A stretch of DNA of 64,000 nucleotides from Escherichia coli. GTDB lineage: Bacteria; Pseudomonadota; Gammaproteobacteria; Enterobacterales; Enterobacteriaceae. Made by a program: the position numbers and the translations under genes. The stretch lies in NCBI RefSeq assembly GCF_013315695.1, contig NZ_CP054353.1; one strand, given 5' to 3'. The notes under the pieces are model-generated. The model searched no databases. It worked only from the letters and a program-made list of their open reading frames with translations, and was not told the DNA's origin. Below are positions 6,696-28,489 of the stretch, piece by piece (the stretch's first letter is position 1; each line of letters begins with the position of its first letter).

Positions 6696-8186
6696 TTAAC
6701 TTTTGGTTTTGACTAAATCGTTTTTGGCGCTGCCAAACGGCACGGCACCGCTAAATGGTTTGCCGTCGATAGCGTCATGAGTACGCAATGCTTCCGGGCG
6801 CAGCCAACGCTGAACGCGAGAAGGCATATCCAGACCAATCAGCAGGATCACCACAAACGTCAAACTGAACGAGAGCGATGCCAGCGCAGTACCCAGATCC
6901 AGACGTTGAGCGATCAACGCGCCGATGATTGGGGCCAGTGCGCCGCCCAATGCGCCAACGTTGTAGGTAAAGCCCAGGCCCGCTGCACGCTGGTCGGTAT
7001 CGAAATAACCGCCAATCAGTTTCGGTAAGATCCCGGCGATCCCTTGTCCAAGCATTTGCTGGAAGAACAGTAACAGACCGAGCACCCAGACGTTTGCGCC
7101 GCCAATCGCAAATACCGGAATAATCAGCAGCTGCGAGGCCAGCAGACTACAAACGTACGCTTTGCGGGTTCCCAGCCAGTCACCGAGGAAGCCACCGACG
7201 CAGCACCCCACCGCCGCGCCAAAGCCACTAAAGAACAGCACATTGGCGACAGTATGCGGGTCATAAGCCAGATCGGTTTTCAGATACGTTGGCAGCAGCG
7301 CCTGAATCGGCCATGAGTAGAGGAAAGCAAACAACACGACCACCATCAGCATTACGCCCGTTGGCCAGCGTTTGCCCGTACTCTGCACCATAAAGCTGAT
7401 AAAGATTGCGGCGCATAACAGCCCAAGAACAGCGACGATCGCGGCATTTTGCAGGTTACCGGCGAAGCAGAACCACAGCGCAGTAGCCGCCGCCAGTGTC
7501 ATTACGATATTGGCAATGCGATGTTCACCACGGTAGAGAATATCCACCATTGTGCGTACCGGTGCTTTACCCCCGTGTTTCTCTTTCCAGTCTTCCGCTT
7601 CCGGGATGTTTTTACGCAGCCAGAGAGCAAAGATGATTGGCAAAATGCCGATAAAGAACAGCGCGCGCCAGCCCCAGACCGGAACCACCAGACTATAGAC
7701 CTGAGCGGCAACGACGGCCCCCACTGAGAAGCCTGAAATCAGAAAACCACTGGCTTTGTTACGCAGATGCTTTGGCCAGCTTTCAATGACATAGGTGGCG
7801 CTGGAACCGTATTCACCCGCCATCCCCATGCCGATGACCAGACGAGCGATAAACATGGTGATGTAGCCTGGCGCAAAGCCGCAGGCCAGCGTCCCGGCCG
7901 AGAAGAGAACGATGCTGGTGACCATTGCCAGACGACGCCCGTAGCGGTCACCCATAGCGCCGAGCATCAGGCCGCCGAACCAGCGAGAGATAAAGGCTGC
8001 GGAGATCAGACTTGCCGCCTGCACCGTCGTGAGCCCGAATTCACCCTGTACTTCGGTGAGTACCAGGGCGATTAAAACGAAATCAAAACCGTCAAGCAGA
8101 TATCCCAACCAGGCAGCGGAAAATGCCCGCCATTGTGCGCGGTTAAGATGGCGATACCACGGGATATTCTGGGTTGTAGTACTCAT
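6696..8186 (-). CDS. nanT: sialic acid (Neu5Ac) MFS transporter
   Basis: 496-aa polytopic membrane protein starting [11 protein letters not shown]; position between nanA and nanE. Confidence 0.93.
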
Positions 8187-8256
8187 TGTGAGTCTCCCGC
8201 GGTGGGCGATGCCCACACGCTTTGGTATGAAAATTGTAGGGTACAGATGCGTTTAT

Positions 8257-8289
8257 TTCCCCTCACCCGGTAGGGGCGAGCGAGGGGAA
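8257..8289. repeat. GC-rich imperfect palindrome (TTCCCCTC...GAGGGGAA), intergenic nanA-nanT
   Basis: 8-bp inverted arms around a 17-nt loop; same family as the copy at 26876-26912. Confidence 0.6.
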
Positions 8290-8294
8290 AAAAC

Positions 8295-9188
8295 TCACCC
8301 GCGCTCTTGCATCAACTGCTGGGCCAGCGCCTTCAGTTCTGGCAGATATTTTTCATCTACCGGACCAAACGGTTTGCGGCACAGCGGCACAGAAACGACA
8401 TCCATATAATGGAGGACAGTTTTCAGGCCGCGGAATACGCCCGTTTTGATCAGTAAATCAATGACTTTATTGCACTCAGTTTGCAGTTTCTGCGCGGTCT
8501 GGATATCGCCTTCTTTCAGCGCCTTAACAATGCCCTGATAACGCCAGCCCATGATGTTGTAGGTACTACCGATACCACCATCAGCGCCCGCCAGAAGACC
8601 AGAGGCGAAGATTTCGTCGTAACCGTTGTAGAGCACCAGATCCGGATGTTCACGACGGATCTGCTCCATCTGATAGAGATCGCCAGAGGTCTGTTTCAGC
8701 GCGCCAACACCTGGCAACGTAACCAGAGTGTTGATCTGATCCAGGCTCAGTTTAACGCCACTTAACGCCGGAATGTTGTACACCACCATCGGCAAACCAT
8801 CCGCTGAATCAATAATTGCCCGATAGTGATCGCAGTGTTCTTCAAAGCTGAAAGGATAGTAGAACGGCGTAACGGCAGAGACGGCATCGAAGCCATAACG
8901 TTTAGCCGATGCCGCAAGTTGTTGGCTTTCAGCAGTGCTGACGCAACCTACGTGAGCGATGAGTTTAATCTTGCCTTTCGCCTCTTCGGCGACGATTTCC
9001 AGTACCTGTTCACGCTCGGAAAGGCTTTGTACAAAGGCTTCGCCGGTAGAACCACCCACGTATAAACCGTCGATGCCCTGCTGAATATTGAACTGAACCA
9101 GGCGACGCAGACTCGCTTTATCCAGTGCTTGTTGTTGATCAAAAGGAGTCAGGAGTGCGGCCATTACGCCACGTAAATTCGTTGCCAT
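8295..9188 (-). CDS. nanA: N-acetylneuraminate lyase
   Basis: 297-aa ORF of the DHDPS/NAL class I aldolase family (GSTGE motif); first gene of the nan operon. Confidence 0.95.
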
Positions 9189-25906: not shown

Positions 25907-26836
25907 ATGGAACGACTAAAACGCATGTCGGTGTTTGCCAAAGTAGTTGAATTTGGCTCTTTTACCGCCGCCGCCAGACAGCTACAGATGAGCGTTTCGT
26001 CCATCAGTCAGACGGTGTCAAAACTGGAAGATGAGTTACAGGTAAAGCTGTTAAACCGTAGTACACGCAGCATTGGCCTGACCGAAGCCGGTAGAATTTA
26101 CTACCAGGGCTGCCGTCGGATGCTCCATGAAGTGCAGGATGTTCATGAGCAACTGTATGCCTTCAATAACACCCCCATCGGGACGCTGCGCATTGGCTGT
26201 TCTTCAACTATGGCACAAAATGTTCTCGCCGGGCTGACAGCAAAAATGCTGAAAGAATACCCAGGTTTGAGCGTCAATCTGGTTACCGGAATTCCTGCCC
26301 CCGACCTGATTGCCGACGGTCTGGATGTGGTGATCCGCGTCGGCGCGTTGCAGGATTCCAGCCTGTTTTCCCGCCGTCTGGGCGCGATGCCAATGGTGGT
26401 GTGCGCCGCGAAAAGCTATCTCACACAATACGGCATACCGGAAAAACCCGCCGATTTAAGTAGTCATTCATGGCTTGAATACAGCGTGCGACCCGACAAT
26501 GAATTTGAACTGATCGCACCGGAAGGGATCTCGACTCGCCTGATCCCGCAAGGGAGATTTGTGACTAATGATCCGATGACGCTGGTGCGCTGGCTGACTG
26601 CAGGCGCTGGGATCGCCTACGTGCCGCTGATGTGGGTGATCAACGAGATTAATCGCGGGGAGCTGGAGATCCTGCTGCCACGTTACCAGTCAGATCCACG
26701 CCCGGTTTATGCGTTATATACCGAAAAAGATAAGCTGCCGCTGAAGGTACAAGTCGTGATCAACTCGCTAACGGATTATTTTGTTGAGGTCGGTAAATTG
26801 TTTCAGGAGATGCACGGGCGCGGGAAAGAGAAGTAA
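25907..26836 (+). CDS. aaeR: LysR-family activator of aaeXAB
   Basis: 309-aa LysR-type regulator with N-terminal HTH; divergent from aaeX. Confidence 0.92.
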   Translation: MERLKRMSVFAKVVEFGSFTAAARQLQMSVSSISQTVSKLEDELQVKLLNRSTRSIGLTEAGRIYYQGCRRMLHEVQDVHEQLYAFNNTPIGTLRIGCSSTMAQNVLAGLTAKMLKEYPGLSVNLVTGIPAPDLIADGLDVVIRVGALQDSSLFSRRLGAMPMVVCAAKSYLTQYGIPEKPADLSSHSWLEYSVRPDNEFELIAPEGISTRLIPQGRFVTNDPMTLVRWLTAGAGIAYVPLMWVINEINRGELEILLPRYQSDPRPVYALYTEKDKLPLKVQVVINSLTDYFVEVGKLFQEMHGRGKEK

Positions 26837-26875
26837 TTAATATTGTACTGTTACGTTGTACAAACCTGTGCCAAT

Positions 26876-26912
26876 GGGGTCCCCTCACCCTAATCCCAGA
26901 GGGCGAGGGGAC
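26876..26912. repeat. GC-rich palindromic intergenic repeat (GGTCCCCTC...GAGGGGACC)
   Basis: 9-bp perfect inverted arms; shares the CCCCTCACCC...GGCGAGGGG pattern with the 8257-8289 copy. Confidence 0.65.
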
Positions 26913-26962
26913 CGTTCGTGCACGTAAAAGGATTAATTATCCTTCTGAAAATACTGAAATTA

Positions 26963-28423
<1,461 letters not shown>

Positions 28424-28455: not shown

Positions 28456-28489
28456 GCCGGATGCGGCGTGAACGCCCTGTCCGGCCTAC
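28456..28489. repeat. REP element
   Basis: GCCGGATGCGGCGTGAACGCCCTGTCCGGCCTAC matches the canonical enterobacterial REP consensus. Confidence 0.85.

Follow-up and report, generated by a model that had tools for sequence, protein, structure and literature searches.

The first description of the palindromic BoxC repeat of Escherichia coli reportedly goes back to Bergler and Bachellier. The repeat is known from work of the 1990s; the same motif was described again in 2000 by Maher and co-workers under the name PIT (potential intrastrand triplex) elements, and is catalogued as TMECO by Holder et al. 2015 (PMC4666352, NAR 43:10126). Its consensus, CCCTCNCCC N3-6 GGGNGAGGG N3 GGGNGAGGG, consists of three 9-nt blocks, and 23 elements are listed for MG1655 (Table 1 of PMC4666352). 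Intact TMECO forms a stable purine-motif intrastrand DNA triplex in vitro that has gone undetected in vivo, the loci vary more than the intergenic regions used as controls, and the published copy numbers run from 29 in strain 55989 down to one in IHE3034 (PMC4666352). In the same paper, PIT elements are reported to have neither promoter nor terminator activity and no effect on polymerases in vivo. An independent survey places BoxC among the known stem-loop families of E. coli, together with PU-BIME and ERIC (PMC2267715).

A second group of described systems concerns the 3' ends of transcripts. Rho-terminated mRNAs are trimmed until PNPase and RNase II meet a stable stem-loop without a U-tract, which blocks them, and only some of these protective stem-loops are REP sequences (Dar and Sorek 2018, PMC6061677). 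As cited in that paper, REP acts as a stabiliser in the intra-operon case malE-malF (Newbury et al. 1987) and has been linked genome-wide to Rho-terminated transcripts (Peters et al. 2012).

Two palindromes in the nan-to-yhdP region

The window, a stretch of 64,000 nt, is a segment of the E. coli chromosome matching the nan-to-yhdP region of K-12, with the same gene order on the K-12 map. The initial annotation had pointed out two GC-rich palindromes in it, at 26876-26912 and 8257-8289, the first between aaeR and tldD and the second between nanA and nanT. Both are present and are far commoner than chance would have it: the pattern CCCCTC-N8-30-GAGGGG occurs twice in the window, compared with 0.04 expected, and none of 100 shuffles reached two. 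The gene coordinates agree with the intergenic placement (copies listed with their flanks or full extent):

6696 to 8186, minus strand: nanT coding sequence, ATG at 8186, downstream of copy 2
8251 to 8294, minus strand: copy 2, probable two-block, type-B-like BoxC derivative with its GC core at 8259-8287, in the nanA-nanT spacer
8295 to 9188, minus strand: nanA coding sequence of the nan operon, stop codon UGA at 8297-8295, directly upstream of copy 2
25907 to 26836, plus strand: aaeR coding sequence, 3' end toward copy 1
26866 to 26925, no strand assigned: copy 1, almost certainly a decayed type-A BoxC/PIT/TMECO including flanks, judged by its hairpin, its K-12 orthology and its retained blocks
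26963 to 28408, minus strand: tldD coding sequence, stop at 26963, convergent with aaeR

Copy 1 is thus bounded by the stop of aaeR (plus strand, 26836) and the stop of tldD (minus strand, 26963), and a tldD transcript on the minus strand would pass through it. Copy 2 sits within the 108-nt nanA-nanT spacer, and on the nan mRNA strand its hairpin begins at the first base past the nanA UGA stop. The aaeR/tldD site is widespread: a 1-kb query matched 5,425 of 5,426 complete E. coli genomes, annotated with aaeR and tldD.

The inverted arms, previously put at 8-9 bp, are longer. In copy 1, GGTCCCCTCACCCT-aatcccag-AGGGCGAGGGGACC, they measure 14 nt (26878-26891 and 26900-26913; 93% complementary) around an 8-nt loop, and in copy 2, TTATTTCCCCTCACCCG-gtagggg-CGAGCGAGGGGAAAAAA, 17 nt (8253-8269 and 8277-8293; 82% complementary). 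A right-hand string that both copies were said to share is contiguous in copy 1 (GGCGAGGGG); copy 2 has GGGGCGAGCGAGGGG instead, with an extra CGAG. RNA folding, one of the checks proposed with the annotation, gave both copies energies far better than those of shuffled sequences (z to -5.9): -34.8 kcal/mol on the plus strand (z -5.1) and -37.5 kcal/mol on the minus strand (z -5.9) for copy 1, and -31.0 kcal/mol on the nan mRNA strand (z -5.1) and -20.8 kcal/mol on the other strand (z -2.1) for copy 2. The much better folding of copy 2 on the mRNA strand is due to two stem positions that are G.U pairs there and A.C on the other strand.

An Rfam scan of the whole window at the gathering threshold gave no match. 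The sequence at 28456-28489 (GCCGGATGCGGCGTGAACGCCCTGTCCGGCCTAC), in the tldD-yhdP spacer, is a REP-like sequence that matches the canonical REP consensus (GCCGGATG...CCGGCCTAC). Neither palindrome carries that consensus, and the annotation was right both to separate them from REP and to suggest a dispersed family. The palindromes are of the BoxC (PIT, TMECO) family, which is not new but has been known since the 1990s, and the locus of copy 1 stands in the published table; that the window copies are decayed two-block forms had not been seen. The other two proposed checks point the same way, the comparison with catalogued families identifying copy 1 as the ortholog of K-12 TMECO no. 14 and the genome-wide search finding the full K-12 element at a median of 18 places per E. 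coli genome (93,632 places in 5,425 genomes, range 2-35). This range agrees with the published spread of 29 to one. Several ExPEC-type genomes, such as ST131 JJ1887 and an O6:K2:H1 strain, have only 2-5 BoxC places, and MS 21-1, the nearest relative of the window, has five with a degenerate query.

The three-block motif CCCTCNCCC N3-6 GGGNGAGGG N3 GGGNGAGGG has no match on either strand of the window. With only two of the three blocks, the window copies are derivatives and not intact members, and because the published motif needs the third block, a triplex is not expected in them. They share with BoxC the block sequences CCCTCGCCC and GGGTGAGGG, the TTA or CCG linker, the flanks and the intergenic site, but lie outside the published consensus and belong with the elements that Holder et al. 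call 'TMECO mutated' or degenerated. A G-quadruplex was considered and set aside: on inspection the G-rich strand of each window copy has only three runs of at least three G, and NMR excluded a quadruplex even for intact TMECO (PMC4666352). All this matters little beyond annotation, in which two unannotated hairpins receive their correct name, BoxC/PIT/TMECO.

Copy 1 and its alleles between aaeR and tldD

On the minus strand, copy 1 reads GCACGAACGGT-CCCCTCGCCC-TCT-GGGA-TTA-GGGTGAGGGG. It retains blocks 1 and 3 together with the TTA loop and the family's ACGGTC flank on the left, while GGGA is all that is left of the middle block. As the middle block is mostly deleted, block 1 pairs directly with block 3 and a simple 14-bp hairpin results. 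The orthologous position in K-12 holds CCCCTCACCCTAACCCTCACCCCAAAGGGGCGAGGGG, that is CCCCTCACCC-TAA-CCCTCACCCC-AAA-GGGGCGAGGGG, which conforms to the three-block motif and is about 6-7 nt longer than copy 1. Its other strand, CCCTCGCCCCTTTGGGGTGAGGGTTAGGGTGAGGGG, exactly matches the entry for TMECO no. 14 (3,390,494-3,390,529, type A mm, antisense; Table 1, Holder et al. 2015, PMC4666352). Judged by sequence and position, copy 1 is almost certainly a decayed BoxC derivative and the positional ortholog of this catalogued element.

The window allele also differs from its nearest relative, MS 21-1, in the run GAGGGGCGAGGGG at 26900-26904, which is one G short. Of the 5,426 complete E. coli genomes, not one matches the window exactly at the aaeR/tldD locus, the best matches being 99.5% and 98.4% identical with one indel. 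The missing G is due to a private mutation or to a sequencing error in the homopolymer.

An alignment of the aaeR-tldD spacer from eight E. coli alleles showed the full three-block element in K-12 and ERL03-1416, a 6-nt deletion inside the middle block in SMN152SH1, GTEN_23, MS 21-1 and the window, and a 12-nt deletion in C7. In some E. coli strains, such as MFDS1019527 (107-188, orthologous to window 26837-26962), the whole spacer, BoxC included, is swapped for a REP-like sequence (GCCGGATAAGGCGTTTATGCCGCATCCGGCA...). In a ranked sample of 40 rows from the 4,681 genomes that matched by megablast, the lengths fell into classes of 221/222 (25 rows, ~62%), 228 (10 rows, ~25%) and 216 (5 rows, ~12%). 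The window spacer had no megablast match in about 745 genomes, and the full K-12 allele as query was found at 95% identity or more in 2,039 genomes. The aaeR/tldD locus is hypervariable across E. coli. That copy 1 varies so much and can be replaced altogether argues against a sequence-specific function at this site. The allelic series leads from a three-block triplex motif by decay to a plain hairpin, or by replacement to REP-like sequence, and supports the published view of BoxC loci as unstable.

Another pair of convergent K-12 genes, zntA and tusA, likewise has a BoxC between them (no. 16, 3,608,684-3,608,719), in this case an intact one.

Copy 2 in the nanA-nanT spacer

Like the K-12 type-B copies no. 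3 and no. 18, copy 2 has a T-run as its left flank, block 1 and, at its end, CCG-GGGTGAGGGG. Second loop and flank thus tie both window copies to the family, by TTA and ACGGTC in copy 1 and by CC-G before GGGTGAGGGG and the T-run in copy 2. Local alignment of copy 2 with the type-B copies scored 34-35, and none of 1000 shuffles was as high (shuffle maximum 24). Two alignments were obtained, in which the lost block is block 2 or block 3. The copy is absent from the K-12 TMECO list, and K-12 carries the same two-block sequence. Its BoxC origin is indicated by this similarity and by a site shared with another genus rather than by an intact ortholog within Escherichia. We consider copy 2 a likely two-block BoxC derivative of a type-B variant, fixed in the genus Escherichia. 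Collapse of an inverted BoxC pair (the 'palindrome effect' of Holder et al.) was also considered and passed over for the simpler loss of one block from a single type-B element; the data fit both routes alike.

Spacers between nanA and nanT were collected with a degenerate pattern for the conserved N-terminus of nanT, one genome per species, giving 23 loci. The same reduced hairpin was found in Escherichia albertii, E. whittamii and other Escherichia. Pseudocitrobacter spacers contain 2 to 5 BoxC copies (1, 1 and 5 exact consensus matches), and the flanks of these elements align with the flanks of the E. coli nan hairpin. P. faecalis and a Pseudocitrobacter metagenome-assembled genome (MAG) each have an inverted BoxC pair with one exact match. 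Of the five exact matches in P. vendiensis, four are type-A BoxC copies in tandem units of ~73-75 bp, and next to nanA lies a type-B copy in inverted orientation; the tandem array implies that BoxC can expand locally by tandem duplication. The spacer of Kluyvera intermedia has a degenerate BoxC, those of Salmonella arizonae, S. diarizonae and Citrobacter amalonaticus have REP elements, and those of Raoultella and Enterobacter have other hairpins. At the orthologous position, then, copy 1 has a catalogued member in K-12, and copy 2 is connected to the family indirectly, by way of the BoxC at the same site in Pseudocitrobacter.

These observations bear on whether the window copies are unrelated hairpins that look alike, and look like BoxC, by chance from their runs of C and G. 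The two copies do share only ~20 nt, and BLAST with copy 2 returned mostly its own locus (median of one place per genome). For copy 1, orthology to a catalogued BoxC already largely refutes a chance likeness. As for copy 2, its flank and blocks are shared with type-B copies well above shuffles, and BoxC copies occupy the very same site in Pseudocitrobacter, as does a degenerate one in Kluyvera intermedia. We therefore rate coincidence as most improbable and treat both copies as BoxC remnants.

Within E. coli, the nan copy was present in 5,408 of 5,426 genomes at 95-100% identity over 65 nt, and its length classes differ by at most 1 nt. At -26 to -35 kcal/mol, E. albertii, E. whittamii and a divergent genome labelled E. 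coli, E69, have retained the hairpin, and the changes seen in other Escherichia preserve pairing. A rival reading has the elements act at the DNA level, as has been proposed for intact BoxC, either through non-B structures (intrastrand triplex, cruciform) that would stall replication and favour local instability or recombination, or as a protein-binding site. Intact TMECO forms a triplex in vitro and its loci are variable (PMC4666352), and the aaeR/tldD site is strikingly polymorphic, with its 216, 221/222 and 228 classes and its REP-like replacement. Both window copies, however, lack the third block, and a triplex has no in vivo evidence even for intact copies (PMC4666352). The near-invariance of the nan copy in 5,408 genomes speaks against a hot spot, and its substitutions pair only on the mRNA strand, which points to RNA and not DNA. 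Action at the DNA level is accordingly improbable in our view, and at this level the window copies would be remnants of a repeat without demonstrated function.

A further BoxC of K-12, the intact no. 19 (3,908,495-3,908,530), lies just downstream of the pstA stop. As pstB presumably follows pstA in K-12, this element would be intra-operon, like the nan copy. We found nothing relevant in the literature on a nanA-nanT stem-loop.

The transcribed hairpins and RNA 3' ends

Both palindromes are very likely decayed BoxC elements that, as RNA, form stem-loops without U-tracts and are candidate barriers to 3'-exonucleases. GC-rich stem-loops right after stop codons, with copy 1 between convergent genes, also call to mind intrinsic (Rho-independent) terminators, which would be bidirectional at aaeR/tldD and would form an intra-operon attenuator after nanA. 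An intrinsic terminator, however, has a U-tract after its stem, and none follows the stem of either copy on either strand: copy 1 continues with ACCGUUCGUG (plus) and CCCAUUGGCA (minus), and copy 2 with AAAUAAACGC on the mRNA strand. Terminator and promoter scans around both copies called neither hairpin, and the BoxC family is reported to be without terminator activity (PMC4666352). In K-12, moreover, termination on the tldD strand is Rho-dependent and takes place ~350 nt past the element. Intrinsic termination thus appears very improbable. The initial annotation had offered attenuator or stabiliser as the role of the nan copy; the missing U-tract and the reported inactivity of PIT elements make an intrinsic-terminator attenuator unlikely there, while a stabiliser would fit the anatomy and the conservation in Escherichia.

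The most likely role of the BoxC remnants would be that of passive RNA stem-loops that block 3'-exonucleases, as REP does. When transcribed, the copies would form very stable stem-loops that do not terminate transcription by themselves but stop 3'-to-5' exonucleases. The parallel with REP/BIME lies in a stable stem-loop without U-tract at an extragenic or intra-operon site and in the same proposed barrier action, and both spacers hold REP or REP-like sequences in other strains or genera. The differences are the REP consensus, which the window copies lack, and RNA stabilisation, which is known for REP and is a proposal for BoxC.

A partial parallel to copy 1 is offered by the stem-loops that protect Rho-dependent transcripts (Dar and Sorek 2018, PMC6061677), since copy 1 is a U-tract-free hairpin with Rho termination downstream on the tldD strand in K-12. 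The region in question, centred at 3,390,148 on the minus strand and antisense to aaeR (Rho score 5.99, p 5.5e-18; PMC7815308 supplementary file 2), lies ~350 nt beyond BoxC no. 14 on the tldD strand, and a second K-12 Rho region lies ~80 nt beyond BoxC no. 15 (Adams et al. supplements). After Rho-dependent termination downstream, copy 1 may set and protect the 3' end of the tldD mRNA, and possibly that of aaeR. It differs from the protective stem-loops in that no steady-state 3' end is mapped to its hairpin in the Term-seq table. The Term-seq data (Adams et al., PMC7815308) assign no 3' end to tldD, to aaeR or within the nanA-nanT spacer, and by coordinate none falls at the K-12 BoxC no. 3, 15, 16 or 19 (Adams et al. 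supplements). This is weak evidence, since the list is confined to ~1,000 dominant ends and the media used would probably have left the nan operon uninduced.

In the nan operon, copy 2 may shield the nanA portion of the polycistronic mRNA relative to nanT-nanE-nanK, as REP does between malE and malF. The hairpin starts directly after the nanA stop, and a terminating ribosome would therefore transiently open its base. One could go further and regard the nan hairpin as a domesticated BoxC remnant under selection at the RNA level that tunes NanA against NanT-NanE-NanK, and certain intergenic spacers, such as nanA/nanT and aaeR/tldD, as 'slots' refilled by any hairpin repeat family. Near-invariance in ~5,400 genomes, changes that preserve pairing and pairing on the mRNA strand only speak for domestication, and the two ideas together strike us as rather doubtful. 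If slots were indeed refilled by BoxC, REP and others, this would imply that selection favours a hairpin of whatever family, or that these families prefer the same insertion sites. It is mildly interesting in this respect that, across strains and genera, the hairpins found in these two spacers come from different repeat families. The hypervariable copy 1 set against the nearly frozen nan copy offers a testable case for co-option of a BoxC remnant as an intra-operon mRNA stabiliser.

Two further signals were noticed in the nan operon. A hairpin in the nanT leader, GTGGGC-AUC-GCCCAC (window 8202-8216, minus strand), lies just upstream of the nanT Shine-Dalgarno GGGAGA. It is conserved in Escherichia, Kluyvera, Pseudocitrobacter, a Klebsiella MAG, Raoultella, Enterobacter sp., Tenebrionibacter, Siccibacter and Phytobacter, but the Salmonella, C. 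amalonaticus and Edwardsiella versions lack it; it has no Rfam match. Across 16 distinct sequences pairing is 100% and the loop varies, with compensatory changes in two pairs (G-C to A-U and C-G to U-A). The hairpin may serve nanT as a 5' stabiliser or in translation. The other signal is a strong Term-seq 3' end at K-12 3,373,531 on the minus strand (PMC7815308 supplementary files 1 and 3), ~45 nt into nanA and near window position 9140 (minus strand), an indication that the RNA is terminated prematurely or processed in the 5' region of nanA.
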